A DNA stretch of 64,000 bases from Candidatus Latescibacterota bacterium (GCA_965215195.1 CBDCDC010000002.1:2880001-2944000), one strand, 5' to 3'. Counted from the stretch's first letter, positions 4,591 through 41,089 are shown. Made by a program: numbers and translations. Notes: generated by a model not told the origin, from the sequence alone.

Positions 4591-4593
4591 GCC

Positions 4594-5388: not shown

Positions 5389-5429
5389 GGAAGGCACCGC
5401 GCAAACTTCAACGAAGAGAAAGCACTGCT

Positions 5430-6311
5430 ATGGAAAAATTTGCCCCCTTGAACATGTCCCCAGAAGAGCTAATCGAGTACACCCCAGAGTGGGAAGGCGG
5501 GCGCTTTGCCGACGGCCGTCCCAAGGTCCCCGACGACATCCTCGCGCGCATGCACAACGTCAGCATTACCCAAGCCTGGGGCGTCTTGCGCGGCCCCGGG
5601 TACAACTGGCAGTACGAAGATGGCTGGATTTGTACGCATCCCGGCCAAGTGCTGGTGGGCCGCGCCCTGACGGCCGCGTACCTGCCGCGGCGGCCCGTCA
5701 TGCGTCGGGTCATGGAAGCAAAAGGGAAGCGGGCCGGCTGCATTGGCGACCAGATCTCGTGGCCCATTGACATGCTGGTGCGCGGGGATGTGTACGTGGC
5801 CGACGTATTCGGCAAAATCGATCAAGGCGCCGTCATTGGCGACAACCTCGCCACTGCCATCTACGCCAATTCGGGCAACGGGGTGGTTCACGACGCGGCC
5901 GTCCGCGATATCGACGGCATCCAAGCCTTGCCCGATTTTACCAGTTTCGTGCGCGGCTTTCACCCCACCTTTGCCTCGCCCACCATCATGCTGGCTGGCG
6001 TCAACTGCCCGGTGCGGATCGGCGGGGCCACGGTCATGCCCGGCGACGTAGTGCTCGGCCGCGACGATGGCGTGGTCTTCATACCGCCTCACCTAGCCGA
6101 ACAGGTGGTCAAAACCTCCGAACTGATCTCGCTCCGCGACCGCTTTGGCAAGCAGTGCCTCGCCGAGGGCAAATACGCGCCCGGCCAAATCGATACCCGC
6201 TGGTCCGACCCCATTGAGGCGGACTTCTCGCGCTGGCTAGAAAGTCACATCGACGAACTGCCCGTGCCGCGTGCCGCCATCCAAGAGTTGCTCAAGGAGC
6301 GGACTTGGTGA
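5430..6311 (+). CDS. RraA/HMG-aldolase family protein
   Basis: LVGRALTA, IGDNLATAI, AVRDIDGI, IGGATVMPGDVVLGRDDGVVFIP. Confidence 0.85.
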   Translation: MEKFAPLNMSPEELIEYTPEWEGGRFADGRPKVPDDILARMHNVSITQAWGVLRGPGYNWQYEDGWICTHPGQVLVGRALTAAYLPRRPVMRRVMEAKGKRAGCIGDQISWPIDMLVRGDVYVADVFGKIDQGAVIGDNLATAIYANSGNGVVHDAAVRDIDGIQALPDFTSFVRGFHPTFASPTIMLAGVNCPVRIGGATVMPGDVVLGRDDGVVFIPPHLAEQVVKTSELISLRDRFGKQCLAEGKYAPGQIDTRWSDPIEADFSRWLESHIDELPVPRAAIQELLKERTW

Positions 6312-7068
6312 GCTCGGGCGATGGCTCGACCCGTTTCCCTGCCTTGAGAAAAGGCTCGGCATTTCCCCAGAGTTTGCTGCCGTCGGCCGAGGTCAGGGGC
6401 TCGCAAGAGTACTGGGCCAAGTACACGCGGCGCATCTGATTGGTGGTGTTGGTGCCGCTGGAGTGGAAGTTGTAGCTGGTGAAGACGGCAATGCTGCCGG
6501 CCGGGGCCACGACCGAGATGCCGGGGTCGCTGCCGAAGTAGCCGATCAAGTCGTTGCTCCCCTCCTCGCGGACGTGCTTGACCCAAGTGCGAATGCCCGA
6601 GCGCGAAAAAGGCAGCAAGTGGACGGTGCCATTGGCCTCGGACATGTCGTCGAGGGCACACCAACAGGTTAGATACGGCTTGTGATCCGGGTAGCCGACG
6701 TAGCCCGAGTCTTGGTGCCAAGAGAATTTCATGCCAGCCTCGGCACCTTTAACCACGTATTGTTCCCAAAACAAGTAGGCGTCGTCGCCTAGGGTAGCTT
6801 GGCAGATTGCGGCCATTAGGGGGCTGAAGAGAAACTCGCGCAGGCGCGGCTGCTCGCGGAAGCAGTTGGATACAAAGTAGCGGCTGTTGCGGTGATTGAG
6901 GCCCAAGGTATCCGTGCCCTCGGCGTCCATCCGGGCGTTGGCTTTGTCGATGAAGGCTTGGCACTCGCCGCGCAGGAGCTCGAGGTGGTGGGCGGGGATG
7001 GCGCTTTCGAGGACGAAATAACCCTCTTCTTTGAATTGCTGCCTTTGGGCGTCGGTGATCTGGCGCAT
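6292..7068 (-). CDS. PhyH-family dioxygenase
   Basis: QFKEEGYFVL, FSWHQDSGY, WCALDDMSEANG, FHSSGTN...RRVYLAQY. Confidence 0.9.
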   Translation of the reverse strand: MRQITDAQRQQFKEEGYFVLESAIPAHHLELLRGECQAFIDKANARMDAEGTDTLGLNHRNSRYFVSNCFREQPRLREFLFSPLMAAICQATLGDDAYLFWEQYVVKGAEAGMKFSWHQDSGYVGYPDHKPYLTCWCALDDMSEANGTVHLLPFSRSGIRTWVKHVREEGSNDLIGYFGSDPGISVVAPAGSIAVFTSYNFHSSGTNTTNQMRRVYLAQYSCEPLTSADGSKLWGNAEPFLKAGKRVEPSPELTKSAP

Positions 7069-7307
7069 GGATCGCTCCCGGTTGATTGCAATTTAATGTA
7101 AGCTGCGGCGATATACTGGGCAGAACCCACGAGGTGTGCAAGCCTTGCACACGCGCAAAACGATCCCGCACGTCCAACTGTCGCCGCATTCCCGACATAC
7201 CGTGCGGGCCGGTGCCCTTCCGTCCCTCCCACAATAGATTCATCTGGTGGGGGTTGAGGGGGTATGGGGCTTGATTTTGGGAGAGCTTTTTTTCAATTTG
7301 GGCCGCG

Positions 7308-7391
7308 TACGGCCCGAACTCGCCGCTGCACTTGGCGGCGTGGAATTCGGAGGCCGCGGCGGTGTTGCGCCGCTACGGTGGCCGAAAGTGA
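7308..7391 (+). pseudogene. Orphan 3' end of an ankyrin-repeat gene
   Basis: Reads YGPNSPLHLAAWNSEAAAVLRRYGGRK*; SPLHLAA matches the ankyrin TPLHxAA consensus; no start or body upstream. Confidence 0.5.
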
Positions 7392-8143
7392 AATACCCTG
7401 TTTGTTGAAAGGATCGGAGATACGATGACCGACGAACAACACCCCCTTCACGCCTTGCCCCAAGGCCATCGGCTGCAAGAATACGAACTGGTGCGCGTGT
7501 TGGGCATGGGCGGCTTCGGCATGACCTATCTGGGCTTTGACCACAACTTGGACAAGGCCGTCGCCCTCAAGGAATACCTGCCGTCGGATATTGCCACCCG
7601 CACGGCCGATGGCAGCGTCGCTCCGCAAGCCAGCACCTTTCGCGGCGATTTCCAATGGGGCTTGGAGCGGTTTTTGGACGAAGCACGCACGTTGGCGCGG
7701 TTTGATCATCGCCACATCATTAAAGTGCATCGTTTCTTTGAGGCGCATGGTACGGCGTATATCGTAATGGAGTATGCCGAAGGCGAGACCTTATCGGCGC
7801 ATCTGGAGCGCAAGGGGCCGCTGACGGAAGCCGAACTCAAGACGATTCTGTATCCGCTTCTGGACGGTTTGGAAGTGGTGCATCAAGCGGCTTTTCTGCA
7901 TCGGGACATCAAGCCGGGCAACATTGTCCTGCGGGCTGAGGACGCTTCGCCGGTGTTGCTGGACTTTGGTGCGGCGCGTCAGGCGATAGGAGCCAAGAGT
8001 CGTTCGGTGACGTCTATCGTGACGCCGGGGTATGCGCCGATAGAGCAGTATTCGAGTCGGGGTCGTCAAGGGGCTTGGTCGGATATTTATGCGTTGGGGG
8101 GCGTGTGCTATCGGGCGTTGACTGGGGACGTGCCGGCGGACGC
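7364..8143 (+). repeat. Copy 1 of a ~780 bp direct repeat (upstream region plus kinase domain); copy 2 at ~19523-20302
   Basis: gttgcgccgctacggtggccgaaagtgaaata...ggatcggagatacgATG and the kinase coding sequence recur with constant offset 12159. Confidence 0.92.
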
Positions 8144-9692
8144 GACGGATCGGATGCGGCATGATCCGCTGGTTCCGGTGTCTGAGCGGTGTGCGGGTCG
8201 GGCGAGTGGTGCATTTTTGTCAGCGATTGATGCGGCATTGGCAGTAGATGAGGGGGATCGTCCGCAGAGTGTGGGGGCGTGGCGGGCGGCGTTGGAAGGG
8301 GCTAGTTCGGCCTCGGCCCCAGCGCGTGGCCAAGCAGAAGGGGAGAGTCGTAGGATACCGGAGCCAGTGGCTCGGGCGGGGCAAGCTGAGGAAGTGGTGG
8401 ATGCTGTGGCGGCAGCAGAGAAGGATGCGGGGGATGAGGCGACAATTGTGGAGCGGGTGGAGCCGGCCGCGCCGCCGTCGGAGCGGCAGCAGAAGCCCAG
8501 CTTCAAGCGGCTTGCCGTAGTCTTGGGCGTGGTTGCTGCTCTGTTGGTTGGGGGCAAACTGTATGTTGATCATGCCGAACAGGTAGCGTTGGAGAAGGAG
8601 CGTCGGGCGGAACAAGCTGCCGAAGCGGCCAGACTTGCGGCTGAGCAAGCCGAGAAGGAGCGTCGGGCGGAACAAGCTGCCGAAGCGGCCAGACTTGCGG
8701 CTGAGCAAGCCGAGAAGGAGCGTCGGGCGGAACAAGCTGCCGAAGCGGCCAGACTTGCGGCTGAGCAAGCCGAGAAGGAGCGTCGGGCGGAACAAGCTGC
8801 CGAAGCGGCCAGACTTGCGGCTGAGCAAGCCGAGAAGGAGCGTCGGGCGGAACAAGCTGCCGAAGCGGCCAGACTTGCGGCTGAGCAAGCCGAACAGCAG
8901 GCGGCGTTAGAGAAACAGCGTCGGGAGCAGGCGGCGTTGGAAGCAGAGCGCAAGGCGGGCCAGGTGGCTTCGCTTCCGGGGGGTGCGGAGATGGCGTTTG
9001 TTTGGATCGCGCCGGGAGTGTTTCAGATGGGTTCGCCTTCCTCGGAGGCGGGTCGTGGTTCAGATGAAGGGCCGGTGCATGAGGTGGAGATCAGTCGGGG
9101 GTTTTGGTTGGGTAAATATGAGGTGACGCAAGCGCAGTGGGCGGCCGTGATGGGGGCGCGGCCGTGGTCTGGGAAGGATTATGTTCAGTCGAATCCATCT
9201 CATCCGGCGGTGTATATTTCTTGGAATGATGTACATGAATTTATTGGTCGTTTGAATGACGCGGCGGGTGAGGAGTTGTATCGGTTGCCGAGTGAAGCGG
9301 AGTGGGAGTATGCGTGTCGAGCGGGTACGCAGACTCGTTGGTCATTTGGGGATGCCGAGCACCAACTGACGCATTATGCATGGTACAGGGATAATGCTTG
9401 GGGTATGGGTGAGAGGTATGCTCATGCGGTAGGGACGAAGCGTGCGAATGGTTGGGGATTGTATGATATGCACGGGAATGTTTGGGAGTGGGTGCAGGAC
9501 TGGTATGGAAAGAAGTATTATAATAGCTCACCTCGGGTTGACCCCCCGGGGCCTACATCCGGCTCTAATCGCGTCCTCCGGGGCGGCGGCTTCTTCAATA
9601 TCGCCCGGCGCGTGCGGTCGGCGCATCGCAGCAACGCCTCGCCCGACCCCCGCCACTACGGCATTGGCGTGCGCCTTTTAAGGATTCGTTAA
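7425..9692 (+). CDS. Membrane Ser/Thr kinase with coiled-coil repeats and a C-terminal FGE-sulfatase (SUMF1/CLec-fold) domain
   Basis: GMGGFG, VALKE, HRDIKPGN, DFG, TPGYAPIEQ; TM LAVVLGVVAALLVGG; FQMGS...EGPVHEV...KYEVTQAQW...RLPSEAEWEYACRAG...NGWGLYDMHGNVWEWVQDWY...RVLRGG...IGVRL. Confidence 0.95.
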   Translation: MTDEQHPLHALPQGHRLQEYELVRVLGMGGFGMTYLGFDHNLDKAVALKEYLPSDIATRTADGSVAPQASTFRGDFQWGLERFLDEARTLARFDHRHIIKVHRFFEAHGTAYIVMEYAEGETLSAHLERKGPLTEAELKTILYPLLDGLEVVHQAAFLHRDIKPGNIVLRAEDASPVLLDFGAARQAIGAKSRSVTSIVTPGYAPIEQYSSRGRQGAWSDIYALGGVCYRALTGDVPADATDRMRHDPLVPVSERCAGRASGAFLSAIDAALAVDEGDRPQSVGAWRAALEGASSASAPARGQAEGESRRIPEPVARAGQAEEVVDAVAAAEKDAGDEATIVERVEPAAPPSERQQKPSFKRLAVVLGVVAALLVGGKLYVDHAEQVALEKERRAEQAAEAARLAAEQAEKERRAEQAAEAARLAAEQAEKERRAEQAAEAARLAAEQAEKERRAEQAAEAARLAAEQAEKERRAEQAAEAARLAAEQAEQQAALEKQRREQAALEAERKAGQVASLPGGAEMAFVWIAPGVFQMGSPSSEAGRGSDEGPVHEVEISRGFWLGKYEVTQAQWAAVMGARPWSGKDYVQSNPSHPAVYISWNDVHEFIGRLNDAAGEELYRLPSEAEWEYACRAGTQTRWSFGDAEHQLTHYAWYRDNAWGMGERYAHAVGTKRANGWGLYDMHGNVWEWVQDWYGKKYYNSSPRVDPPGPTSGSNRVLRGGGFFNIARRVRSAHRSNASPDPRHYGIGVRLLRIR
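8592..8891 (+). repeat. Perfect in-frame tandem repeat, 5 x 60 bp (EKERRAEQAAEAARLAAEQA)
   Basis: gagaaggagcgtcgggcggaacaagctgccgaagcggccagacttgcggctgagcaagcc repeated identically five times. Confidence 0.97.
9559..9692 (+). other. Putative DGR variable region (VR) at the 3' end of the kinase-CLec gene
   Basis: Codons at the variable positions of the RVxRGGxFxxxAxxVRSAxRxxxSPxxRxxxIG motif end in C/T (ggc ttc aat atc cgc cat agc aac gcc gac ccc cac tac ggc), as expected from AAC/AAT templates; abrupt switch from G/T-rich to C-rich sequence near 9541; no TR or RT in window. Confidence 0.7.
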
Positions 9693-9761
9693 CCCTTTAG
9701 TCCTTTTACCCTTTAACCCTTGGCGGGGGTCTTGGGGCGTGTGGGGTGTCTTTTGGGGTAT

Positions 9762-9830
9762 GCCTTTTGGGATTTCGCCCCGATAAAGGGGTGTGCGTAG
9801 CCGCCCTTCGGGGGCGGAATCCCAAAAGGC
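9762..9830. repeat. Long imperfect inverted repeat downstream of the VR
   Basis: gccttttgggatt / aatcccaaaaggc perfect 13 bp, extending imperfectly inward (cgcccc / ggggcg). Confidence 0.8.
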
Positions 9831-9845
9831 GGGGGAGGGGCCCCT

Positions 9846-9869
9846 GTGAGGCCCGCGTGCGGGCCTCAC
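9846..9869 (+). other. GC-rich perfect hairpin followed by gcgattttt (DGR cruciform-like element and/or terminator)
   Basis: gtgaggcccg-cgtg-cgggcctcac, 10-11 bp stem. Confidence 0.7.
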
Positions 9870-9903
9870 GCGATTTTTATCTTCCCCCCTTCCTGAGAGA
9901 AAC

Positions 9904-9948
9904 TGCCACCCGCACGGCCGACGGCAACGTCGCCCCGCAAGCCAGCAC
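9904..9948 (+). repeat. 45-bp orphan fragment of the kinase gene
   Basis: tgccacccgcacggccgacggcaacgtcgccccgcaagccagcac matches 7592-7636 with 3 mismatches (also ~19751-19795). Confidence 0.85.
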
Positions 9949-10008
9949 ATGGGACGCTCCTAAACGGCTGAGGTATGGCCAACCATCAACTCTGAGGAGG
10001 ATATACTT

Positions 10009-10893
10009 ATGCAGAACAGAACCCTTCGGGATCCTAATTCTCGGTTTATCACACCGGCAGGCGGAGTTATAGCACTTCTCTGTTTCTTTATGCCTTGGGT
10101 TAAAATCTCTTGCATGGGTACCACCACACAAGTTTCAGGTTTTGATCTTGCTACCAAGGGCGGAGACCTGATTATAAACCCTTTTGTTGCTTTAATTGCT
10201 GCCGTGGCAACTATTGGGATTAGCGTTTACATGTTGATGCAACAAACACCTTGGAAATCCAAATTGCCAGTTCTTATTAGCAGTGGGATTGGGATCTGTT
10301 GCCTTTGGGTCAGTTTGTTCAAGGATGGTCGTCCTAGTTTTGGAGGACTTGAAGGCACCCTCCAATTTGGAGCGTTTGGAACGATTATCGGATTTATTCT
10401 TTCTATTATCGGTGTATGGGCCACCTCTAAACCCGACGATAGTTCAGGCATCCCCGGTGAAAACCAGTATAGACCAAACCCAAAGGCTGAGTCCCGCTTG
10501 AACGAAACTGAACAAACGGCTGAAGCAGTGCGCCAAACTAAAGCGAATGCTCCGCAACCCACGCCTTTTAGCTGTCTATTGGAAGGCCAAGACCCCACCG
10601 GCCGGTCATTCGCCTTGACCATATCGGCATTGGCATTGAGTGAGCGGGCCGGGGTGACGCTCGGCAGAAGCCCGGCCAACGCCGAATTTGTCATTGACCA
10701 CCAAGAAGTCTCCCGCGAACACGTCCGGCTTGCCTGTGTTGACGGCGAACTCTACGCAGAGGACTTGAACGCCCTGAATGGCACCAAGGTGAATGGCCGC
10801 TTGCTCAATCCCCACGAGCAGGTGCTGTTGCAAAACAATGATCGGCTTGAGGTAGGGCCGATTGTTTTTGCCGTGCGCTTCGTTCAGGTCTAA
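10009..10893 (+). CDS. Multi-TM membrane protein with C-terminal FHA domain
   Basis: About 4 hydrophobic helices (LLCFFMPWV...SGFDL); FHA TLGRS...VSREH...NGTKVNG; C-terminal part nearly identical to that of 10993-12618. Confidence 0.85.
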   Translation: MQNRTLRDPNSRFITPAGGVIALLCFFMPWVKISCMGTTTQVSGFDLATKGGDLIINPFVALIAAVATIGISVYMLMQQTPWKSKLPVLISSGIGICCLWVSLFKDGRPSFGGLEGTLQFGAFGTIIGFILSIIGVWATSKPDDSSGIPGENQYRPNPKAESRLNETEQTAEAVRQTKANAPQPTPFSCLLEGQDPTGRSFALTISALALSERAGVTLGRSPANAEFVIDHQEVSREHVRLACVDGELYAEDLNALNGTKVNGRLLNPHEQVLLQNNDRLEVGPIVFAVRFVQV

Positions 10894-10992
10894 ATACACG
10901 ACAGTAACCTAAGTTGTGGTGCAGCCATGATTTAGATTTATTATCAACCTTCTTAGCTGTTGACGGCCAGCCTGAACGTACACGGAGAGGTT

Positions 10993-12618
10993 ATGAACAA
11001 ACAATACCTATCTTTCATCGCGCATTTCGCCGTGGCTTGGTTCCTTTGCACAAGCCCCGTCTCGGCGCAAATAGATGTGGATGCTGTTTCCGAAAGCATC
11101 GTGCGGGTGCGCGCTTATGACGATCACAAAGTCGTGGTTGAAGGGAGCGGTTTCGTCGTCAATGAAGAGGGCTACGTGCTGACGAATGCCCATCTCACAG
11201 CCAAGGCAGAGGGATTGACTGTATTGTCCCTGAAGACCGGGGCCGAGGTCGTGGCGCAGCGGGTGTTTGCCAGCCGCGCCCTGAACTTGGCCCTGCTGCA
11301 CGTACCGGGCTTGAACTTGCCGCCCCTCAGCTTGTCCGAGCAAGGTGCCGCTGTAGGCCGCGTCGTGCAGACGCTGCGGTTTGGCACGGACGAGGATGTT
11401 CGGCTTTCTCACGGGACGATTGGCACCTACCAAGACGTCCGCGGCAAGAAAGCAAGCCGTCCGGTGGCACACTTGCTCCAACACAACGCCTTGATAACGG
11501 CCAAAGCCTTTGGCATGCCCTTGTTCAACGAATGCGGGGACGTCGTCGCCCTCAATCTGCCCAACCCGGGCAGCGGCTCGTGGCCGTTTCGTAAAGCGAA
11601 GCCAAGCGGGACCATTTTTGCCCTGCGCAGCGGCGACATAATAGCGGCGCTTGAAGAGCGAGAAATCGCGCATACCGTGGTTGAAGCAGAATGCCTGAGT
11701 GCGGTTGAGCGCGCTGAACGCGCTAGAAAAGCGGCGGCTGACAGCCTCAAGTTGGCGAAGGCGCAGGCCGACTCGGTAGGCAAAGCCGCAGAAAAGGCCA
11801 AGGCGCAGGCCGATTCGGCGAGCGAAGCCGCAAAAAAGGCCAAGGCGAAAGAAAAGGCCGCTCGGCGGGCGGCAGAACGGGCGCAAGCGCGAGCCGATTC
11901 CGCCAAGAAAGCGGTGGCCGACAGCCTCCAAGCGGCCAAGGCTCAAGCCGACAGCCTCAAGATGGCGCAGGCGCGGGCTGATTCGGCGAGTAAGGCCGTG
12001 GCCGACAGTCTCAAGGCCGCCAAGGCTCAAGCCGACAGCCTCCAAGCGGTGGAAGAGAAGGCCCAAGCCCAAGCCGACAGCCTCCAAGCGGCCAAAGAAA
12101 AGGCCGCGCAGCGATTGCAGTGGGGCGTTGCTGCGGGGGCGGGATTGGTGCTGCTCGCACTGCTCGGTTGGTGGCTTTCCTCGCGGCGCAAAAAGGAGCA
12201 ATTACAGAGTGCCGAGTCTCGAGTGAGCGAAGCCGAGCAAACGGCTCAAGCCGCGCGCCAAGCGGCGGCGAACGCACCGCAACCCGCGCCTTTCAGATGT
12301 CTATTGGAAGGCCAAGACCCCACCGGCCGCCCATTTGCCTTGACCCTATCGGCCTTGGCATTGAGCGAGCGGGCCGGTGTGACGCTCGGCCGAAGCCCGG
12401 CCAATGCCGAATTTATTATTGACCACGAAGAAGTCTCCCGCGAACACGTCCGACTCGCGTGTGCTGACGGCCAACTCTACGCAGAGGACTTGAACGCCCT
12501 GAATGGCACCAAGGTGAATGGCCGCCTGCTCAACCCCGGCGAGCAGGTGCTGTTGCAAAACAATGATCGGCTTGAGATTGGGCCGGTGATTTTTAGCGTA
12601 CGCTTGCTGCAGGAGTGA
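10993..12618 (+). CDS. Exported trypsin-like domain (catalytic Ser absent) - coiled coil - TM - FHA
   Basis: Signal peptide; GSGFVV...LTNAHL; AKAFGMPLFNECGDVV in place of GNSGGPL; ADSLxAAKAQ repeats; TM; FHA GR/SxxH/NGT. Confidence 0.85.
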   Translation: MNKQYLSFIAHFAVAWFLCTSPVSAQIDVDAVSESIVRVRAYDDHKVVVEGSGFVVNEEGYVLTNAHLTAKAEGLTVLSLKTGAEVVAQRVFASRALNLALLHVPGLNLPPLSLSEQGAAVGRVVQTLRFGTDEDVRLSHGTIGTYQDVRGKKASRPVAHLLQHNALITAKAFGMPLFNECGDVVALNLPNPGSGSWPFRKAKPSGTIFALRSGDIIAALEEREIAHTVVEAECLSAVERAERARKAAADSLKLAKAQADSVGKAAEKAKAQADSASEAAKKAKAKEKAARRAAERAQARADSAKKAVADSLQAAKAQADSLKMAQARADSASKAVADSLKAAKAQADSLQAVEEKAQAQADSLQAAKEKAAQRLQWGVAAGAGLVLLALLGWWLSSRRKKEQLQSAESRVSEAEQTAQAARQAAANAPQPAPFRCLLEGQDPTGRPFALTLSALALSERAGVTLGRSPANAEFIIDHEEVSREHVRLACADGQLYAEDLNALNGTKVNGRLLNPGEQVLLQNNDRLEIGPVIFSVRLLQE

Positions 12619-12621
12619 ACA

Positions 12622-13944
12622 TTGCACCGCTCCAGACGCTGGGGTCTCGTCTTGTTTCTTGGTGCGCTGCTGCCGGGCCGCGCCGTTGCTGCGCCAGACT
12701 TTGACGCGCTGGAGAAGAGCGTGGTGCGCATCGTAACCCAGACCAGTGCTGGCACTGGATTCGCGATCAACGACCAAGGCTATATTGCGACCAATGTCCA
12801 CGTCATCGCCAATGCCCGCTCAATCCAAGCCATCCCGACAAACTCCAACGCCCTGTACGAGGTGGAAGTAATCGCCACGTCCCCAGAACTCGACCTCGCA
12901 ATCGCCCATATCCCAGATATAACCCTGCCGCCGATCGCGCTGTCGCTCGCCCCCGCCACCAAAGGACAGAAGGTATGGTCCATCGGCTATCCCGGTGGGG
13001 CTGACCGCAACAGGCCGGCGCACGACCCGACCGTGCAAGACGGCGTCATTGGGCGGGTTTTTTTAGGCGCGTGGCATGCACAAGAGCTCAGAATTATTCA
13101 GCACAATGCGCCGACCAACCCAGGCAACAGCGGCGGCCCCTTACTAGATGACTGTAGCCGGGCCGTCGGCGTCAATACGCAGGCGTCGCTCGTGGTCATT
13201 ACCAGTCCATCGAGCGGGGTGACGCGGGTGCCCCATGCGGCGGGCATTTACTGGTCTTCGCACATAGAGGAGTTGGCCAACCTGTTGGACGGCCACGGCA
13301 TTGCCTTTCAAGCGGAGAGTGACGATTGTGTGGCGGCTGGCGGCACGGGAAGCTCTGGCGAGGCCGAGAAGGCGCGGCGCGAGGCGGAAAAGGCGCGGCG
13401 CGAAGCCGAAGAAGCGCGAGAGCAGGCCGAAGAAGCCAGCGATCAATTCCTCGTCTATCTGCTATTGTTGGGTGGTGTGGCCTTGGTCGCATTGGTCGTT
13501 GCCTTGAAGAAGCCGCGCCAGTTCGCCCAGCAGACTTTGGCGAAGCCGCGCCAGCTCGTCCAACAGATGAGTCAGCGCGTGACCAAAAAAGGGGTAGAGG
13601 CCGTTGCAAAAGGCCCAAAGTACGGCCTCGTGCTAGCTGGTTTTGACGGTCGCGGCCACCGCGTTCGCATTGAGTTGTCGCCGGCCCGCTTGGCCGGTCA
13701 ACGCTTGGGGCTTTCGCTCGGCCGGCATCCCGAGCTGGTGGATGAAGTCGTCGCCGATGAAAACGTATCCCGACGGCATCTGCGCATTGCCGCCCAAGGC
13801 AATCGCTTGTACGTCGAAGACTTGAACTCCAGCAATGGGACGTTTTTGAATGAACAGCGCCTGTCGCCCTTTGAGCCGGCGCGATTGGAATATGGTGCCA
13901 AAGTTGCGTTGGGCGATTTGGTGCTCGTGGCGTCCAAACTTTAG
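12622..13944 (+). CDS. Exported trypsin-like serine protease - TM - FHA
   Basis: Signal peptide; GTGFAI, TNVHV, DLAI, PGNSGGPLL triad; TM FLVYLLLLGGVALVALVV; FHA SLGRH...VSRRH...SSNGTFLN. Confidence 0.9.
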   Translation: MHRSRRWGLVLFLGALLPGRAVAAPDFDALEKSVVRIVTQTSAGTGFAINDQGYIATNVHVIANARSIQAIPTNSNALYEVEVIATSPELDLAIAHIPDITLPPIALSLAPATKGQKVWSIGYPGGADRNRPAHDPTVQDGVIGRVFLGAWHAQELRIIQHNAPTNPGNSGGPLLDDCSRAVGVNTQASLVVITSPSSGVTRVPHAAGIYWSSHIEELANLLDGHGIAFQAESDDCVAAGGTGSSGEAEKARREAEKARREAEEAREQAEEASDQFLVYLLLLGGVALVALVVALKKPRQFAQQTLAKPRQLVQQMSQRVTKKGVEAVAKGPKYGLVLAGFDGRGHRVRIELSPARLAGQRLGLSLGRHPELVDEVVADENVSRRHLRIAAQGNRLYVEDLNSSNGTFLNEQRLSPFEPARLEYGAKVALGDLVLVASKL

Positions 13945-13956
13945 AGGGTATTGGGC

Positions 13957-14910
13957 ATGAAAAAACGCAGCCGCGAGCTCAGCATCTTTAGCATGTCCGC
14001 GCTCGATCTATTCGCATCGGCTCTCGGTGCCTTCATACTCATTACCGTAGTGCTGCTGCCCTTCTTTCCAAATCTGAACATGTCGGGACAAGCGCAGGCT
14101 GAGTTGGAACAGGCGCAGGCCGAGTTGGCGAAGTCGAAGGCCGAGTTGGCGCAAGCGGAGGCCGAGTTGGAGCGAGAGAAAGCCAAGCTAAGACAGGAAA
14201 AAGCCAAACTAGAGCGGGCCAAGGCCAAAGTTCCGAAAACAGAAAATCCACTTGCAAAACGAGTGGAGGCTTTGCAACAGGAGCTGAAGCAGGCAAAGGC
14301 CGAAGCGGCGAAAGCAAAAGGTCAGCTTGCAAAACGGGTGGAGGCTTTGCAACGGGAGATAGACGACACAACCGTTTTATTGGGAATCAAGACGAAGGCG
14401 AAGAAGTTTGTATTCGTCATAGATATGTCGGGCAGTATTTATCAACCGGCACAGCAAGATTATCGCCCGTTCATAACATTGTCCATACGAGACATGCTCG
14501 CTGCTTTTAAGTCGGAAATAGAGGTCTGTCTCATTGGTTTTCAAGGCTCAAATCGGCTGCACTATTGGCCTCAAAATAGAGGGTACTTTCAAGTGAAAAG
14601 GAATACGCGAGATCGCGTTGTCGGACAGGTAAAAGACTGGATGAGATTGGTGGATGGCGGCACACCCACGCGCACTGCTTTGCTGGCGGCGATTGCACTG
14701 CACCCCGAAGAAATCATCCTGTTGAGCGATGGGGCACCCTCAGAGGATTGGCGCATGGTCGTGCGGACTGTAACGGCTAAAAATAGGCGGAAAATACCCA
14801 TACACGCCGTAGCCGTTGGCAATTACGTGACAGACCGGAAATTTATTGATTTTCTGGTGCAGCTAACCGAACAAAATAACGGCTATGTCGTAGGAGCCAA
14901 ACCGGGTTGA
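13957..14910 (+). CDS. ExbD/MotB-like TM anchor - coiled coil - vWA (MIDAS) protein
   Basis: N-terminal SMSALDLFASALGAFILI with Asp in the TM; vWA VFVIDMSGS, GGTPT, LLSDG, IHAVAVG. Confidence 0.82.
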   Translation: MKKRSRELSIFSMSALDLFASALGAFILITVVLLPFFPNLNMSGQAQAELEQAQAELAKSKAELAQAEAELEREKAKLRQEKAKLERAKAKVPKTENPLAKRVEALQQELKQAKAEAAKAKGQLAKRVEALQREIDDTTVLLGIKTKAKKFVFVIDMSGSIYQPAQQDYRPFITLSIRDMLAAFKSEIEVCLIGFQGSNRLHYWPQNRGYFQVKRNTRDRVVGQVKDWMRLVDGGTPTRTALLAAIALHPEEIILLSDGAPSEDWRMVVRTVTAKNRRKIPIHAVAVGNYVTDRKFIDFLVQLTEQNNGYVVGAKPG

Positions 14911-14911
14911 C

Positions 14912-15295
14912 ATGAACAAATCGACGTTTTCGGTGTATCGAATTGGGCGCAGCCCCGGGGTGGACATTCGGATTGACGATGATTCGGTCTCGCGCGTCCA
15001 CGCCGAGCTAATTGCGACCCAAAGCGGCTCTTACTACCTCACGGATTGCGCCAGCAGCGGGGGTACTTATGTGGCGCGAAATGGTGAGTGGAGACGCATT
15101 CGGCAGGAATTTATAAGCCCGACCGACGCGATTTTACTCGGGCATTACCAGACGACCGCACCCGCACTTATCGCGCTGGCCGCGCAAAAGGAGCGCCGTT
15201 CAGGAGGCGGCAAACCCACGCGGGAGGACAGCTTGCCCGTAGGTCCCGTGCGGCGCAATGTAGATACGGGTGAGATCATGGGCGAGGAGGATTGA
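14912..15295 (+). CDS. Small FHA-domain protein
   Basis: IGRSPGVDIRIDDDSVSRVHAEL...DCASSGGTYV. Confidence 0.88.
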   Translation: MNKSTFSVYRIGRSPGVDIRIDDDSVSRVHAELIATQSGSYYLTDCASSGGTYVARNGEWRRIRQEFISPTDAILLGHYQTTAPALIALAAQKERRSGGGKPTREDSLPVGPVRRNVDTGEIMGEED

Positions 15296-15296
15296 C

Positions 15297-16082
15297 ATGG
15301 CAAACGGGCAAGGAATAGAGCTGGAGCAACGTCTAAAAGCAAGCGGCGTCAGCCTGTTAGGAGGCGTCGTATCCATAGCGATTATGAGCCTTATTTTTGG
15401 TCATCCCGAGTCGGCGGCCGGTGCTTTCCTGCTAGATCGCCACACCGAGAATTTCCCCTACCCGTTTACGATCCAAAACGTCATGTGGCTCATGTTTTGG
15501 CTTGGCTGCGGTGAACTCTGGGTGCGGTTTAACCAAGCCAAGCTCGAAACGGAGCAGGTGGCGAAACGCTATCTGCCGGAAGACGAGGAGGTTATGTTGC
15601 GGGCGCGGGATTTGGGTTCCTTTTATCAAAAGGTGCGGCCCAAGGCCGAGGAGCACCCCTTTTATTTACAGCGTCTGATCATGCGCTGTATTTTGCAATT
15701 TCAGGGGAGCCACTCGGTCAATCAGGCCAACTCCCTGTTGAATTCTTCCCTCGAACTATTCCAACACGAGCTCGAACTCAAATACGCGATGTTGCGCTAT
15801 CTCGTGTGGCTGATACCAACGTTGGGGTTTATCGGCACGGTGGTGGGCATTGCGTTTGCCTTGGATTACGCGGCCAACATTGAAGACCCACAGGACCCGA
15901 CCTTGCTGGCCGAAATCACCGGTCGGCTGGGCGTGGCGTTTTACACGACCCTGCTGGCGTTGGTTCAGTCGGCCCTGTTGGTGTTTGCGCTGCACATTGC
16001 ACAGAGCCGCGAAGAGATGGCCTTGAACCAATCTGGTCAATACTGTTTGGACAACTTAATCAACCGGCTTTACGAAAAGTAA
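15297..16082 (+). CDS. MotA/TolQ/ExbB proton-channel family protein
   Basis: IPTLGFIGTVVGI and LGVAFYTTLLAL motifs; multiple TMs; GAGGAGG RBS. Confidence 0.9.
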   Translation: MANGQGIELEQRLKASGVSLLGGVVSIAIMSLIFGHPESAAGAFLLDRHTENFPYPFTIQNVMWLMFWLGCGELWVRFNQAKLETEQVAKRYLPEDEEVMLRARDLGSFYQKVRPKAEEHPFYLQRLIMRCILQFQGSHSVNQANSLLNSSLELFQHELELKYAMLRYLVWLIPTLGFIGTVVGIAFALDYAANIEDPQDPTLLAEITGRLGVAFYTTLLALVQSALLVFALHIAQSREEMALNQSGQYCLDNLINRLYEK

Positions 16083-16115
16083 GTTGCTGGAACAACCCAA
16101 AAATAGGAGGGCACC

Positions 16116-16769
16116 ATGCCTGTTTATCGCGGACCCGATGGCAAAATCATTGAAGAGAAAACCGATAAGCGGAAGGAGGATACCAAACCAACGGACAGAG
16201 CTGACAGGCCGTTGCCGCCGGCACCACCGGATGGCGAGCAACCCGCCGGTGCCGGGCGTTTAGATGCGCCCACCCAGCGAATGGGCGAAAGCCGTGCGCC
16301 GGCCAATGTCGGCGCGGAGGAGCGGACGCGCTTGGTGGGAGGGCGGCCGCGGCGAGAAGACGAGGAGCGCCGGCAGGAGCGCGCCGCAGCGGATCGCGGC
16401 ATGGATGATCCGGTTGTGGGGTGGCTGGTGGTTGTGGAGGGGCCGGGCAAGGGGCGGGCCGTGCAATTGGGATATGGTTCCAATTCACTTGGACGCGGGG
16501 CCACCGACCGCATCAAGCTCGATTTTGGCGACGATCAGATTTCGCGCAATGGCCATGCCGTTGTCACGTACGATCCGCGCGGCCGGAGGTTTTACGTGCA
16601 GCACGGCGGCGGCAAGAATCTGACGTATCTCGGGGACCAGCCCGTGCTCACACCGGCTGAGTTGCCGGCGCTGAGTCACATTAGCATCGGCAATACGGTT
16701 CTCCGCTTCGTGCCCCTGTGCGGTGCTGAGTTTGATTGGCAGGATGCAGAAGGAAGCGAGGCGCGATGA
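16116..16769 (+). CDS. FHA-domain protein with disordered Thr-containing N-terminal tail
   Basis: PVVGWLVVVEGPGKG...SLGRG...FGDDQISRNGH...LRFVPLCG; AGGAGG RBS. Confidence 0.88.
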   Translation: MPVYRGPDGKIIEEKTDKRKEDTKPTDRADRPLPPAPPDGEQPAGAGRLDAPTQRMGESRAPANVGAEERTRLVGGRPRREDEERRQERAAADRGMDDPVVGWLVVVEGPGKGRAVQLGYGSNSLGRGATDRIKLDFGDDQISRNGHAVVTYDPRGRRFYVQHGGGKNLTYLGDQPVLTPAELPALSHISIGNTVLRFVPLCGAEFDWQDAEGSEAR

Positions 16770-17803
16770 ACGAATTAGACGGGCGCTTTGCCGCACGGCA
16801 AATTCCCGGCCAACGGGACTATCAAGAGGATGACTACGGCCTGTTAGATGGGCGCGACCTCGGCTTAGGCGGCCGCGAGCACACCATGTTGTTGGTGGCC
16901 GATGGCATGGGCGGCCACGTGGGCGGCGCAACGGCCAGTGGTCTTTTGAGCAAGACCTTTGTCGAGGCGTATCCGCAGGCTTCGGGGCCCATCGTCGATC
17001 GGCTGCGGGCCTGTCTCCAAGAGGCTAATGAAGCCATGGCTGCGGCCATTGCCGAAAATCCCGCACTCGACAGCATGGGTTCGACCTTGGTTGCGGCTGT
17101 TGTTTCAAGCGAAGGGCTGAACTGGATCAGCGTGGGCGACTCCCCGCTGTGGTTGTTTCGCGAGGGTGAATTGAGCCGGTTGAATGCCGATCATTCGATG
17201 GCGCCGGTTCTTGCGGATCTGGTGGCCACCGGGCGCATGACCGCAGCGGAAGCCGCTCAGGATCCAAGTCGGCATTCGCTGCGCTCGGCGGTCATGGGCG
17301 ACGACATCCATTTGATTGACGTATCATCGCAGCCGGTGGCTGTGCAGCAGGGCGACCGGGTACTCTTGGCGAGCGACGGTTTGATGACCCTCAGCGAGCA
17401 AGCGATCGCGGCGATCCTTAGAGAAAGGCAAGACGCGCCCTTGGAGGATAGTGCCGCAGCCCTTATCCAAGCGGTGGAAGCGGCCGAACATCCCCATCAG
17501 GACAATACGACCGTCTTGTTATACGCGCCGGCTGAGGGCGCGGAATTGGCGGCGGCTGATGTTGGCGGGGGGGAAGCTGCTCAGGGTAAGCCGCGATTGA
17601 AGCGCTGGGCTGGACTGTTGGGGATGTTGCTATGCGTTACTGTCTTATTGGGGGTGTTTTATTGGCTTGGGCCGGGCGAAGATGCGGCTGTTGAACCCAG
17701 TGAAGGCCCTGATGTTCAAGTGCCAGTGGCGTCCGACGCCGAAGAGGGCGCACCCGCTTCTCAGGAGGATAGCACCCGTACGGGACTGAACGAGCATGAG
17801 TGA
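16766..17803 (+). CDS. PP2C/PPM Ser/Thr phosphatase with C-terminal TM
   Basis: RDYQEDD, VADGMGG, SVGDS, LASDGL, QDNTT; TM WAGLLGMLLCVTVLLGVFYWL. Confidence 0.93.
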   Translation: MNELDGRFAARQIPGQRDYQEDDYGLLDGRDLGLGGREHTMLLVADGMGGHVGGATASGLLSKTFVEAYPQASGPIVDRLRACLQEANEAMAAAIAENPALDSMGSTLVAAVVSSEGLNWISVGDSPLWLFREGELSRLNADHSMAPVLADLVATGRMTAAEAAQDPSRHSLRSAVMGDDIHLIDVSSQPVAVQQGDRVLLASDGLMTLSEQAIAAILRERQDAPLEDSAAALIQAVEAAEHPHQDNTTVLLYAPAEGAELAAADVGGGEAAQGKPRLKRWAGLLGMLLCVTVLLGVFYWLGPGEDAAVEPSEGPDVQVPVASDAEEGAPASQEDSTRTGLNEHE

Positions 17804-19454
17804 GGAACAGCATCGCTTGGCGCTGCCGCAGGGGACGCGCATCCGGGACTTTGAATTTCACCGCGTCCTCGGCCACGGCGGGTTTGGCATCACCTATCTG
17901 GGATGGAACATGGCCTTGGATATTCCCGTGGCGATCAAGGAATATCTACCGGCCGACTTGGCTACCCGTGAGCAGGACTTGTCGGTCGTGCCGCAGACGG
18001 CGCAGGCGGCGTCGGACTTTCAGTGGGGCTTGGAGCGGTTTTTGGACGAAGCGCGCACGCTGGCGCGCTTTCAGCACCCCAACATCGTCCGCGTCCATCA
18101 CTTCTTTGAAGCGCATAGCACAGCCTATATCGCAATGGACTATGTGGAGGGGGAGGACTTGTCGGCGCATCTTGAGCGCAAGGGGACACTGAGCGAAGAC
18201 GCGCTAAAGGGTATTCTGGATCCGCTGTTGAGTGCCTTAGAAGTGGTGCATCAAGCGGCTTTTCTGCATCGGGACATCAAGCCGGGCAACATCGTCCTGC
18301 GCGATTCGGATGGCTCGCCGGTGTTGTTGGACTTTGGTGCGGCGCGGCAAGCGATTGGGGCGAAGAGTCGTTCGGTGACGTCGCTCGTGACGCCGGGGTA
18401 TGCGCCGCTTGAGCAGTATTCGAGTCGGGGTCGTCAGGGTGCATGGACGGATATTTATGCGTTAGGTGCGGTGTGCTATCGGGCGTTGACCGGGGACGTG
18501 CCGGCGGATGCGACGGATCGGATGCGGGAGGATCCGCTGATTCCGGTATCGCAGCGGTGTGCGGGTCAAGCCAGTCCAGCGTTTTTGTCGGCGATAGATG
18601 CAGCATTGGCAGTAAATGAGGGAGATCGTCCGCAGAGTGTTGGGGATTGGCGGGCGGCGATGGCGGTGGACGCGGCCCCGCAGCACGAGCGGATCCCTTC
18701 GTTGGCCAAGCGGTATGCGGCTCGGATAAGCCAAACGTTTCTTTCGGTGATTAATAAGACATTGATGCGAGGAAGGCAGGGCGCGAGCAGTGAGACCGCT
18801 GATGCGCCACTTTCTACTCAGTCAGCAGCCAAAGTTAAAGAGGCGAAGCGTTTGAACAGGTGGTTTAAGCTCCACTACATTTGCCTTGCTGCCATCATAC
18901 CGGTATTGACAGCACTATTTGTTGGTATCGCGGTGGTATTTATCTCCCCACAAGGCGAGCGTATCCTCAAAGATCTGATCCGTTTTTTAGAGTCGCAGCG
19001 GTTAGAGTCATACCCGAGTAGCGTATTCGGACTGTTTGGCATCATAATCGCGATTGTTACGGCCGTGTTCGGGTTGATTGCTTTTGTATCCGGGTTGCGT
19101 ATCCTGCATAAATTGTGGTCCCTCATCTCCGCTCACAAAGCAAAGACGACACCAAGCGAAGCCGTTGGATTTTTCTTTATACCGCTGTTCGGTTTCTACT
19201 GGAACTTCATTGCAATTTACGGTCTCGCCAAAGCCCTCAATACCGAAATTGGTCGAAAATCAGTCAGTGAGGCGGCCAGTTTTATCTATTGCTGCTCATT
19301 TTTGCTTGGCCCTCTATGGGTGATAATGGGATGGCGAGAGGATCAGATTTGGATGGTCCCTATTGGATATATTGTTATGGTTGTGCTCTGGTTCGTCGTT
19401 CTGAGGCAAATGCAGAGTGCTGGTATGTTCATTTTGCAAGCGGATAAGGTGTAG
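17796..19454 (+). CDS. Ser/Thr kinase with C-terminal multi-TM domain (DUF4328-like)
   Basis: GHGGFG, VAIKE, HRDIKPGN, DFG; lower-GC C-terminal half with TPSEAVGFFFIPLFGFYW and about 5 TMs. Confidence 0.9.
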   Translation: MSEEQHRLALPQGTRIRDFEFHRVLGHGGFGITYLGWNMALDIPVAIKEYLPADLATREQDLSVVPQTAQAASDFQWGLERFLDEARTLARFQHPNIVRVHHFFEAHSTAYIAMDYVEGEDLSAHLERKGTLSEDALKGILDPLLSALEVVHQAAFLHRDIKPGNIVLRDSDGSPVLLDFGAARQAIGAKSRSVTSLVTPGYAPLEQYSSRGRQGAWTDIYALGAVCYRALTGDVPADATDRMREDPLIPVSQRCAGQASPAFLSAIDAALAVNEGDRPQSVGDWRAAMAVDAAPQHERIPSLAKRYAARISQTFLSVINKTLMRGRQGASSETADAPLSTQSAAKVKEAKRLNRWFKLHYICLAAIIPVLTALFVGIAVVFISPQGERILKDLIRFLESQRLESYPSSVFGLFGIIIAIVTAVFGLIAFVSGLRILHKLWSLISAHKAKTTPSEAVGFFFIPLFGFYWNFIAIYGLAKALNTEIGRKSVSEAASFIYCCSFLLGPLWVIMGWREDQIWMVPIGYIVMVVLWFVVLRQMQSAGMFILQADKV

Positions 19455-19522
19455 TTACTAACGTTCTCACTTTTTCTAAGAGGCCGTCTGCAAACCCCTT
19501 GTGCGGTCCTCTGCGGCCCATA

Positions 19523-20302
19523 GTTGCGCCGCTACGGTGGCCGAAAGTGAAATACACTGTTTGTTGAAAGGATCGGAGATACGATGAGCGAAGAGCAACA
19601 CCCCCTTCACGCCTTGCCCCAAGGCCATCGGCTGCAAGAATACGAACTGGTGCGCGTGTTGGGCTTTGGCGGCTTCGGCATGACGTATTTGGGTTTCGAT
19701 CACAACTTGGACAAGGCCGTCGCTATCAAAGAATACCTACCGTCCGACATCGCTACCCGCACGGCCGATGGCAGCGTCGCCCCGCAAGCCAGCACCTTTC
19801 GCGGCGATTTCCAATGGGGCTTAGAGCGGTTTTTGGACGAAGCGCGCACGTTGGCGCGGTTTGATCATCGCCACATCATTAAAGTGCATCGTTTCTTTGA
19901 AGCGCATGGTACGGCGTATATCGTGATGGAGTATGCCGAAGGCGAGACCTTATCGGCGCATCTGGAGCGCAAGGGGCCGCTGACGGAAGCCGAACTCAAG
20001 ACGATTCTGTATCCGATTTTGGACGGTTTGGAAGTGGTGCATCAAGCGGCTTTTCTGCATCGGGACATCAAGCCGGGCAACATCGTCCTGCGCGATGAGG
20101 ACGCTTCGCCGGTGTTGTTGGACTTTGGTGCGGCGCGGCAGGCGATTGGGGCGAAGAGTCGTTCAGTGACGTCGATCGTGACGCCGGGATATGCGCCGAT
20201 AGAGCAGTATTCGAGTCGGGGTCGTCAGGGTGCATGGACGGACATTTACGCGTTGGGAGGCGTGTGCTATCGGGCGTTGACCGGACAGGTGCCGGAGGAT
20301 GC
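19523..20302 (+). repeat. Copy 2 of the ~780 bp direct repeat (see 7364-8143)
   Basis: Near-identical upstream region and kinase sequence. Confidence 0.92.
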
Positions 20303-20396
20303 GCAGCAGGCTACGGGGGCTGACGCGCCCATCGTGGCGCGTGTGGAGCCGGCCGGCCGTTTTCACGGGCGCAGGCTTTTAGGCGCGACCTACTGA
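19584..20396 (+). pseudogene. Truncated Ser/Thr kinase (C-lobe end deleted, no sensor domain)
   Basis: Near-identical to the 7425 kinase up to LTGQVPEDA, then jumps to a linker-like segment (ADAPIVARVEPA, cf. DEATIVERVEPA) and stops. Confidence 0.75.
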
Positions 20397-20405
20397 TAGG
20401 CTGAA

Positions 20406-39950: not shown

Positions 39951-40003
39951 ATGAGCCGCTTCGCAGGGCTATCGGGGACCTTTGGCGTTAGCGATATTCA
40001 CGC

Positions 40004-40953: not shown

Positions 40954-41089
40954 GCTATTCTCCTATACGGGTGGCTATGATACTGAACAAATGAACACTA
41001 TTTATCAGTGTCAAGGCAAATTTTATCTATATAAAGCAATTATCTTGCTAGAACAAGAAAATTACTGACTTCTTACTGATCGTACTCTA

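Follow-up and report, generated by a model that had tools for sequence, protein, structure and literature searches.

The 5:2 ion-driven motors, which include the flagellar stators, the Ton and Tol systems, gliding machinery and Zorya, are among the few ways in which a bacterium can perform work beyond its inner membrane. Another envelope machine, the secretion system of type VI (T6SS), has its assembly controlled by threonine phosphorylation, in which PpkA, a membrane Hanks kinase with a periplasmic vWA domain, is accompanied by the PP2C phosphatase PppA and the FHA protein Fha1. To our knowledge, there is no characterised example of a 5:2 motor regulated by phospho-threonine readers. A pair consisting of a TolQ-like protein and a vWA protein with a trans-pore helix (TPH) was predicted as a new class of 5:2 motor in the available part of PMC12204202 (Mol Biol Evol 2025). 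The present study concerns a cluster of eleven genes, all on the plus strand between 7425 and 20396, in a 64,000-nt stretch of DNA from Candidatus Latescibacterota bacterium GCA_965215195.1; this whole stretch is referred to as the window, and all positions are counted from its first letter. The genes were identified by open reading frame (ORF) calls and Pfam and are named g01 to g11 in their order (Table 1). A preliminary description had interpreted them as an undescribed envelope signalling system in which variable receptor kinases recruit exported proteases through FHA domains and gate an ion-driven motor. This interpretation is supported in part: the gene set, the motor pair and the linkage stood up, whereas the central role given to the proteases did not, and the novelty is confined to the wiring. 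We assign a probability of roughly one half to the reading that the island is one of three copies of a phospho-threonine-controlled trans-envelope motor module.

The putative motor consists of g07 and g05, which are parted only by g06. The Pfam model MotA_ExbB (PF01618) recognises g07 with 40.3 bits against a cut-off of 22.9 (41.7 bits in the whole-genome scan), and a profile of 63 family members compared with the PDB sequences has TolQ as the nearest solved family (1.8e-4), with MotA, ZorA and PomA marginal (0.01-0.06 for MotA and ZorA). In the 63 sequences W180, P183, G186, F187, G189 and T190 are invariant and T226 and T227 nearly so; this threonine and proline/glycine signature corresponds to the last two transmembrane (TM) helices, TM3 and TM4, and aligns to TM helices of TolQ. 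The partner g05 carries Asp19 in an N-terminal helix stretch, SALDLFASALGAF, that is nearly unchanged across phyla. The aspartate is kept in 33 of 33 aligned relatives and in 48 of 50 partners from loci without a Latescibacterota label, the exceptions being the identical loci L032 and L033. The AlphaFold2 model of g05 (predicted local distance difference test score, pLDDT, 82.9) has helices at residues 14-38, 40-93 and 100-139, followed by the vWA block at 141-319 with a pLDDT above 90. Pfam VWA matches with 24.4 bits against a cut-off of 23.8, and Foldseek matches include the vWA domain of ITIH1 (8.7e-8), CLCA1 and integrin I domains. The residues of the metal-ion-dependent adhesion site (MIDAS), D158, S/T160, S162 and D260, are present in 29 of 33 relatives of g05, and at least 25 of 44 Asp-helix partners from other phyla contain a vWA domain recognised by Pfam. 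No curated NCBIfam family reaches its own cut-off for g05 or g07. A complex prediction of g07 with g06 from family alignments returned no answer (score 0.00) and carries no weight. The two exceptional loci, of Chelatococcus type (7270-14618), contain only the motor and a long coiled-coil partner with alanine at the Asp position; their motor pair adjoins a VIT-domain protein and several TPR proteins and lacks phospho-genes.

Together, g07 and g05 represent the TolQ-like plus TPH-vWA pair as predicted in the available part of PMC12204202. In the motors described there, as in the window, a tolQ-like gene stands without tolR or exbD, and the partner has an Asp helix and a C-terminal vWA domain; loci L141 and L171 from Idiomarina and Pseudidiomarina belong to the g07 family. 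However, the TPH-vWA genes of that article are, in the part available, mostly heterologous pairs, whereas the window and most other loci have a single gene and tandem pairs were seen in five loci only. These five, L161 (Proteobacteria), L164, L167, L176 (“delta proteobacterium”) and L174 (Binataceae), have two tandem Asp-helix genes after the motor (~9000-11000) and no trypsin-FHA gene, which matches the heterologous-pair form in the available part of the article. The term “undescribed” is thus appropriate for the kinase, phosphatase, FHA and protease wiring, which is absent from the main text of PMC12204202 (the words kinase, trypsin, protease, phosphatase and phospho occur 0 times), but not for the core, which is predicted there. 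In a literature search, no article came up in which the motor is described alongside FHA, PP2C, kinase and trypsin genes, and the system is not covered in the available part of PMC7159879.

With ExbB-ExbD-TonB and TolQ-TolR-TolA the pair shares the channel superfamily, an inner helix with an aspartate and, presumably, the use of ion flow for periplasmic work. In contrast to Ton and Tol, which have an ExbD/TolR domain and a TonB/TolA partner, g05 itself bears the predicted stalk and head, and the cluster has dedicated Ser/Thr phospho-signalling. Membership in Ton/Tol was rejected, as neither Pfam nor NCBIfam gave an ExbD/TolR or TonB/TolA match in the cluster; Pfam and the clustering of neighbouring ORFs likewise gave no ExbD, TolR or MotB gene. 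Four ordinary ExbB/TolQ genes are located elsewhere in the genome.

The conservation of the cluster was followed through its motor gene. Relatives of g07 number 2524 at E<=1e-3, 829 at <=1e-10 and 145 at <=1e-30 among 1.84 billion representatives, and a motif scan of a species-genome collection yielded 486, of which the best 80 per search were taken for annotation. For a second sample, the ranking was based on a distant family member, which added 44 new distinct loci besides 32 duplicates, and a broader vWA hidden Markov model (HMM) was applied after a first, narrower one. The first sample of 97 loci contained FHA genes in 90, PP2C in 84, kinases in 83, an Asp-helix partner within 8 kb of the motor gene in 79, trypsin-FHA in 70 and all five in 61; the corresponding numbers for the 44 loci of the second sample were 36, 31, 31, 38, 25 and 20. 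Over both samples (n=141), a standalone FHA gene was found in 126 loci, the Asp-helix partner in 117, PP2C in 115, a Hanks kinase in 114 and trypsin-TM-FHA in 95. The pairing of a MotA-like protein with a TM(Asp)-vWA protein, as put forward in the preliminary description, is borne out. In the first sample, many of the incomplete loci are short contigs, and all five classes are present in 35 of 63 loci without a Latescibacterota label, and outside this phylum the usual order is FHA, motor, FHA, PP2C, one or two trypsin-FHA genes, Asp-helix partner and kinase.

According to the record titles of the 141 loci, the carriers bear about ten phylum labels, including Pseudomonadota, Latescibacterota, Acidobacteriota, Binatota, Rhodothermota, Bacteroidota, Gemmatimonadota and Verrucomicrobiota, and one short contig is labelled Bacillota. 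Among the Pseudomonadota are SAR86, Pseudohongiella, Idiomarina, Pseudidiomarina, Microbulbifer, Corallincola, Halioxenophilus, a Pseudomonas sp. and Nioella; cultured, non-pathogenic carriers are Pseudidiomarina mangrovi, Microbulbifer epialgicus, Corallincola platygyrae and Nioella ostreopsis. Since the same gene set surrounds g07 relatives in 141 distinct loci, the grouping is far beyond chance, and the cluster is a conserved system. The preliminary description had staked its case on co-occurrence in other genomes, and the set was found to stay with the motor gene across many phyla. That signalling, protease and channel genes merely lie side by side without forming a functional unit is hardly credible: nothing speaks for it except that every one of the domain families is widespread by itself, whereas the set and largely its order recur in these loci under about ten phylum labels, the genes overlap, and no FHA domain of the genome lies outside the clusters. 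When 4081 unannotated neighbouring ORFs were clustered, no further widely conserved family emerged; most of the groups consisted of antisense shadow ORFs, and the one real additional family occurs in 8 loci of SAR86/Pseudohongiella type. The cluster is not part of a T6SS, type IV pilus, Ton or Tol locus.

Variants of the locus were also observed. In SAR86-/Cellvibrionaceae-type loci (L055, L062, L064, L065, L086, L089, L095) an extra divergent gene pair lies upstream on the minus strand (~5300-9500), encoding a PP2C-TM protein of ~540-640 aa and a TM-FHA protein of ~740-780 aa; in Pseudomonas sp. WN033 (L093) a PP2C-TM and a TM-FHA protein are fused into one of 1028 aa. The copy from Thiosymbion (L031) looks decayed, with its trypsin-FHA gene split over two frames and an IS-like transposase pair (7348-8490) beside a PP2C fragment on the opposite strand.

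The 6.13-Mb assembly contains three paralogous copies of the cluster on contig C2 (at ~1.02-1.03 Mb, in the window and at ~4.02-4.04 Mb), whose core proteins are 80-96% identical. In the whole genome, 11 of 11 FHA matches of Pfam fall inside these three loci, together with 7 of 9 Pkinase, 3 of 4 PP2C_2 and 6 of 10 Trypsin_2 matches. The genome's repertoire of phospho-threonine readers is therefore devoted entirely to the system; the sole Hanks kinase/PP2C pair outside the three clusters (C2:130239-131801, frames of 398 aa and 438 aa) has no FHA domain nearby. The three copies group with a support of 89 in a quick maximum likelihood tree, in which the clade labelled Latescibacterota (93) has a gammaproteobacterial clade (96*) as its sister group and lies nested among further Gammaproteobacteria. 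Phylum labels change 9 times on this tree against a minimum of 5, which is compatible with transfers between phyla, no direction being inferable. The first copy (L098) is flanked by two unassigned ORFs of ~290 aa, and a protein with seven Sel1 repeats is encoded directly beside it (15790-16704, minus strand). In the third copy (L099), a gap of 8 kb with an AAA_21/AbiEii-like ATPase gene (4027-5550, minus strand) and several unassigned ORFs parts the upstream kinase-FGE gene from the core.

The contigs of four public DNA runs were compared with the window, with the likeness set to 90. Two contigs of run X5 join 7078 to 20404 (side 92, depth 206) and 7080 to 20400 (side 96, depth 99); these joints rest on contigs and leave open which letters stand between the sides. 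In the same run the depth is ~100-210 on the flanks and ~2-33 inside the island, except in one kinase-domain bin. Deep flanks and a shallow interior imply that the dominant related population in that run lacks or replaces the 13.3-kb cluster at this site, and the cluster as a whole seems to be an island that varies between strains. On one side it ends 10 nt upstream of the PhyH start (7068, minus strand), on the other in the interval from the g11 stop at 20396 to the PnuC start at 20406, and homologues of the flanking genes of the window were found in none of 100 other loci. Short-sided joints (sides 20-25) between kinase paralogues were set aside as repeat or assembly ambiguities, and in-frame length variants of the coiled coils, which may be a mix of two paralogous copies, were left uninterpreted.

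This behaviour raises the question of defence. In such a reading, the locus would be an anti-phage or anti-competitor island like Zorya, in which the receptor kinases detect the intruder and motor and protease execute an envelope response. It could account for the strain variability, the three copies per genome, the kinase-gene turnover with its recombination scars, a genomic context that differs in every genome, and the departure of the tree from the phylum labels. A PADLOC search gave weak matches to ZorA (1.6e-5) and ZorB (8e-4) and generic kinase matches. Like ZorAB, g07 and g05 would form a 5:2-type, MotAB-like motor outside flagella and transport; however, g05 has a vWA head where ZorB has a peptidoglycan-binding domain, and ZorC/D-type effectors are missing from the cluster. 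The assignment to Zorya was rejected because g07 matches only positions 37-125 of the 505-position ZorA model and the ZorB match covers only the N-terminus of g05; no other Zorya model of PADLOC matched in the cluster. With 270 aa, g07 lacks the long ZorA tail, no known PADLOC system was matched beyond generic kinase domains, Pfam and ORF clustering gave no nuclease, NADase or other cytoplasmic effector, and a gene order that stays stable over a wide phylogenetic range is more suggestive of an accessory machine of the housekeeping type. We consider a defence function improbable.

The most variable part of the cluster is formed by the kinases, of which each Latescibacterota locus has 1-8. When 62 kinase tails from 34 Latescibacterota loci (fragments and tails <80 aa dropped) were scanned with Pfam, ankyrin repeats were found in 27, FGE-sulfatase in 17 and DUF4328, the class of the polytopic tail of g10, in 7, with single cases of Excalibur, TonB_C and PDZ. 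A crude hydropathy test placed a TM segment between kinase and repeats in 18 of 30 ankyrin-tailed kinases, so that the repeats would lie outside the cytoplasm. FGE-like, ankyrin, polytopic and unassigned tails all occur when the three genomic copies are taken together. The number of kinases per locus and the exchange of tail types confirm the variable receptor kinases of the preliminary description. For the FGE-like domain of g01, which has the C-type-lectin fold, the nearest solved chains are TvpA (2y3c, 6.4e-30), PvdO and FGE. In the alignment with FGE (6muj), the domain has neither of the two catalytic Cys, as one position falls in a gap and the other is replaced, and it is predicted to be non-catalytic; its nearest solved chain, TvpA, is a ligand-binding protein.

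Several features of the window point to a turnover of kinase genes. In g11, the end of the kinase domain and everything downstream of it are missing, while the remainder is 93-97% identical to g01 in DNA and 89% in protein. The segment 10486-10785 of g02 is 87% identical to the 3' end of g03 (12211-12510), and neither 100 loci nor the remainder of the genome contain a relative of the N-terminal 170 aa of g02; g02 is a window-specific chimera with an FHA end copied from g03. Together with the kinase-gene remnant of 50 nt, g11 and this chimera are scars of kinase turnover. A diversity-generating retroelement at g01 was considered and rejected, as no template-like repeat of 9301-9692 was found, only whole-domain paralogues; the genome-wide scan for RVT_1 gave only two matches (C2:200788 and C2:298818), none of them near g01. 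Five near-perfect 60-nt repeats lie in g01 between the TM segment and the FGE-like domain. Runs X2 and X3 each have a contig joint at these repeats that goes back 423, a hint at copy-number variation.

The two trypsin-fold proteins differ in their catalytic residues, the His/Asp/Ser columns reading H/N/F in g03 and H/D/S in g04, and the dead and the active trypsin named in the preliminary description can be recognised from these triads. A trypsin-FHA gene was examined in 96 loci, the window excluded. Both a His/Asp/Ser paralogue and a Ser-less one are present in 49 of them, only the dead one in 31 and only the live one in 14 (2 ambiguous), so that the dead paralogue occurs in 80 loci and the live one in 63. 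The dead triads are degraded in many ways (HNF, HDY, AGY, GGA and others). This varied decay and the more frequent retention of the dead paralogue argue for a binding or scaffolding role. The dead paralogue is thus the conserved one and the live paralogue an accessory, and the recruitment of exported proteases, which the preliminary description had placed at the core of the system, is not upheld, as the live protease is often absent.

Pfam found no PDZ domain in g03 or g04, and their scores against the NCBIfam models of HtrA, DegP and DegS are 38-72 bits with cut-offs of 408-470; they share only the trypsin fold with these proteases. The nearest precedent known to us is the pair of magnetosome proteins MamE and MamO, a live HtrA-like protease beside a degenerate paralogue. 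The live/dead pairing is the same here, and g03 matches MamO (2.2e-6) and g04 MamE (1.6e-9), both far below the NCBIfam cut-offs; however, in place of PDZ or haem motifs there are coiled-coil stalks and a TM tie to a cytoplasmic FHA domain. A trypsin-TM-FHA protein in L080 (8276-9610, plus strand) ends with the terminal motif VKRNPGTGEVM of the soluble FHA proteins, a domain-shuffling variant. In a more far-reaching proposal, which we consider of low probability, the cluster would encode a pull-and-cut machine, a counterpart of AAA+ proteolysis in the ATP-free periplasm, powered by the proton-motive force and used in contact with host, prey or phage. Kinases with swappable sensors would license, via phospho-threonine and FHA, the docking of a pseudo-protease clamp and a live protease by a rotating vWA head, whose MIDAS would grip an envelope or foreign protein, unfold or extract it mechanically and present it for cleavage.

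The soluble FHA proteins g06 and g08 flank the motor gene, and g06 overlaps g07 by 26 nt. In g06 an FHA domain is followed by a linker and a C-terminal motif, which the AlphaFold2 model reflects with a pLDDT of 97-98 for the FHA domain, <50 for the linker and 74 for the motif block. Among its relatives, R115, T119, G120 and E121 are conserved to at least 90%. The Arg/Ser/His residues with which FHA domains bind phospho-threonine are conserved as well (G12, R13, S27, R28 and H30). The conservation profile of g08 was obtained from 77 sequences. Searched as a regular expression, the shared terminal motif is C-terminal in 48 and N-terminal in 38 of 183 standalone FHA ORFs, and elsewhere it was found in 1 of 8586 other ORFs and once at the C-terminus of a trypsin-FHA protein; the C-terminal peptide of g06 and the N-terminal peptide of g08 look like one motif class. 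Many FHA domains prefer phospho-threonine with a hydrophobic residue at +3, and the Thr-Gly-Glu-Ile stretch of g06 fits this preference. GarA and OdhI are actinobacterial FHA phospho-switches that fold back on themselves. The layout of g08 (N-terminal peptide, threonine linker, C-terminal FHA domain) is similar, with NCBIfam scores far below the cut-offs (47 bits against 125 for the FhaB/FipA-like model), and by analogy suggests that g06 and g08 may be phospho-switchable adaptors in the manner of GarA, although the partners here would be envelope proteins and not metabolic enzymes.

The combination of a Hanks kinase, PP2C and FHA linked to an envelope machine is shared with the PpkA/PppA/Fha1 pathway, whereas the present cluster has four to five FHA proteins and its machine is a TolQ-like motor. 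Membership in the T6SS was rejected, with 35.1 and 28.1 bits for VI_FHA (TagH) against a cut-off of 120.25 and no T6SS genes in the locus. The FHA domains also bear on a comparison with Agl-Glt, the gliding machine of Myxococcus, in which GltG is the motor-associated FHA protein. Were the cluster a surface machine of the adhesion, gliding or secretion type, an adhesive vWA head would be moved or put under tension by the motor, and the bitopic FHA proteins would be motor-associated links. The FHA domains have weak NCBIfam matches to GltG (g06 1.6e-7), vWA and ankyrin domains are protein-binding modules, and the available part of PMC12204202 suggests a gliding-like role for motor-linked vWA proteins. 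Nevertheless, the neighbourhood has no conserved outer-membrane, secretin, pilus or Glt-like component, and the carriers include the planktonic SAR86 and Pseudohongiella, which makes this explanation distinctly improbable.

We infer both the function of the system and the direction of information flow from sequence. In the proposed phospho-threonine-controlled motor module, g07 would, by its family membership, form a TolQ-like pentameric channel around a dimer of the g05 Asp helix, a proton- or ion-driven motor of the 5:2 type, and g05 would extend into the periplasm with a stalk of ~100 residues and a vWA binding head that depends on metal. The conserved linkage points to a dedicated control of this motor by threonine phosphorylation. 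Membrane receptor Hanks kinases with exchangeable sensors (FGE/lectin-like, periplasmic ankyrin or polytopic) would write phospho-threonine, the membrane-anchored PP2C would erase it and the FHA domains would read it. With their terminal docking motif and conserved Thr-x-x-hydrophobic sites, g06 and g08 are probably phospho-switchable adaptors flanking the motor gene. The predicted task of g03 and g04 is to link a trypsin-fold head, borne in the periplasm by a coiled-coil stalk, to an FHA domain in the cytoplasm; the dead head is most likely a binding or scaffold module beside the vWA head, and the live paralogue, where present, would cut. An envelope or contact signal may alter kinase activity, after which FHA contacts that depend on phospho-threonine would bring the stalked heads together around the motor or set them free. 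The putative outcome is that the force exerted by the vWA head on an envelope ligand is switched, with or without cleavage of the ligand.

Some points weigh against this reading. The family alignment shows no invariant threonine in the cytoplasmic loop of g07, and the motor itself may thus not be the phospho-target. A minority of loci (L032, L033, L090, L094, L097, L152, L155, L163, L175) have the motor pair without any phospho-genes, so the motor can exist without the wiring. ORF clustering gave no outer-membrane, lipoprotein or peptidoglycan-binding partner conserved in the cluster. Furthermore, the 141 annotated loci are part of ~486 species-genome relatives, and the neighbourhoods were annotated on longest-ORF calls with HMMs built iteratively from the system's own domains, a circular design that was therefore checked with Pfam on subsets.

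The signal could also run in the opposite direction. The motor and its vWA head would then be an envelope mechanosensor controlling the kinases, with phosphorylation of FHA proteins and protease activation as the output. Stators of the motor superfamily are known load sensors, which lends this direction some plausibility, and Zorya has been proposed to sense envelope damage caused by phages. The gene set is the same as for the motor module, the lack of a conserved threonine in the motor loop suits a motor that sends signals, and with all FHA readers inside the clusters signalling is local either way. The large, variable extracytoplasmic sensors of the kinases themselves would, however, be redundant, and we regard this reversal as rather unlikely.

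The coordinates of the features are compiled in Table 1. The ORF listing and Pfam confirm eleven co-oriented genes with the architectures first proposed, and the tight packing claimed for 10993-19454 holds, with intergenic gaps of -34 to +33 nt from g03 to g10; the g03 ORF opens at 10960 and has an ATG at 10993. The kinase motifs VAIK, HRD and DFG and the metal-binding motifs of PP2C are readable in the protein sequences of the cluster, and g09 matches the NCBIfam model Stp1_PP2C with 131.9 bits against a cut-off of 230. Ordinary metabolic genes flank the cluster: enoyl-CoA hydratase, RraA-like and PhyH before g01, PnuC and prephenate dehydratase after g11. A promoter and terminator consensus scan gave totals no higher than in shuffled sequence. 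The G+C content is ~0.50-0.51 in the 2-kb bins 40001-42000 and 50001-52000, compared with a window average of ~0.60.

Table 1. Features of the island, with positions in the window.
Feature	Position	Strand	Description
g01	7425-9692	+	Receptor Ser/Thr kinase: Pkinase 2.2e-37, TM, coiled-coil repeats, FGE-sulfatase 4.4e-49 (Pfam)
Tandem 60-nt repeats within g01	8592-8900	+	20-residue coiled-coil unit; copies 98-100% identical
Terminator-like hairpin 3' of g01	9845-9870	+	11-pair stem, then T run; consensus scan alone
Kinase-gene remnant, 50 nt	9899-9948	+	90% identical to 7587-7636
g02	10009-10893	+	Polytopic N-terminus and FHA 6.3e-15 (Pfam)
g03	10960-12618	+	Signal-peptide-like start, dead Trypsin_2 (1.1e-16), ~150-aa coiled coil, TM, cytoplasmic FHA
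g04	12622-13944	+	Signal-peptide-like start, active-looking Trypsin_2 (1.4e-26), short coil, TM, cytoplasmic FHA
g05	13951-14910	+	Trans-pore helix with Asp19, ~100-residue helical stalk, vWA head with MIDAS
g06	14912-15295	+	Small FHA protein, C-terminal motif VRRNVDTGEIM (Pfam)
g07	15270-16082	+	TolQ/ExbB/MotA-like channel subunit, PF01618
g08	16116-16769	+	N-terminal motif PVYRGPDGKIIEE, disordered linker with conserved Thr, C-terminal FHA
g09	16736-17803	+	PP2C phosphatase and C-terminal TM anchor (Pfam)
g10	17796-19454	+	Ser/Thr kinase (Pkinase) and polytopic membrane tail
g11	19584-20396	+	Truncated duplicate of the g01 kinase domain
Whole island	7079-20403		Stretch skipped by two contigs of run X5, PhyH side joined to PnuC side

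As judged from its genes, the system varies the theme of the 5:2 motor in a conserved form, to which private phospho-threonine wiring and a pseudo-protease belong. The family would add to the known motors one with an adhesion-type head on the inner subunit, inherited over many phyla together with a private Ser/Thr phospho-switch and a pseudo-protease, in carriers that range from SAR86 plankton to sponge symbionts. It points to motor regulation by phospho-threonine readers, a question that is directly testable because cultured carriers have been identified, and it may offer a concrete function for the orphan Hanks kinase, PP2C and FHA genes of diderm bacteria.

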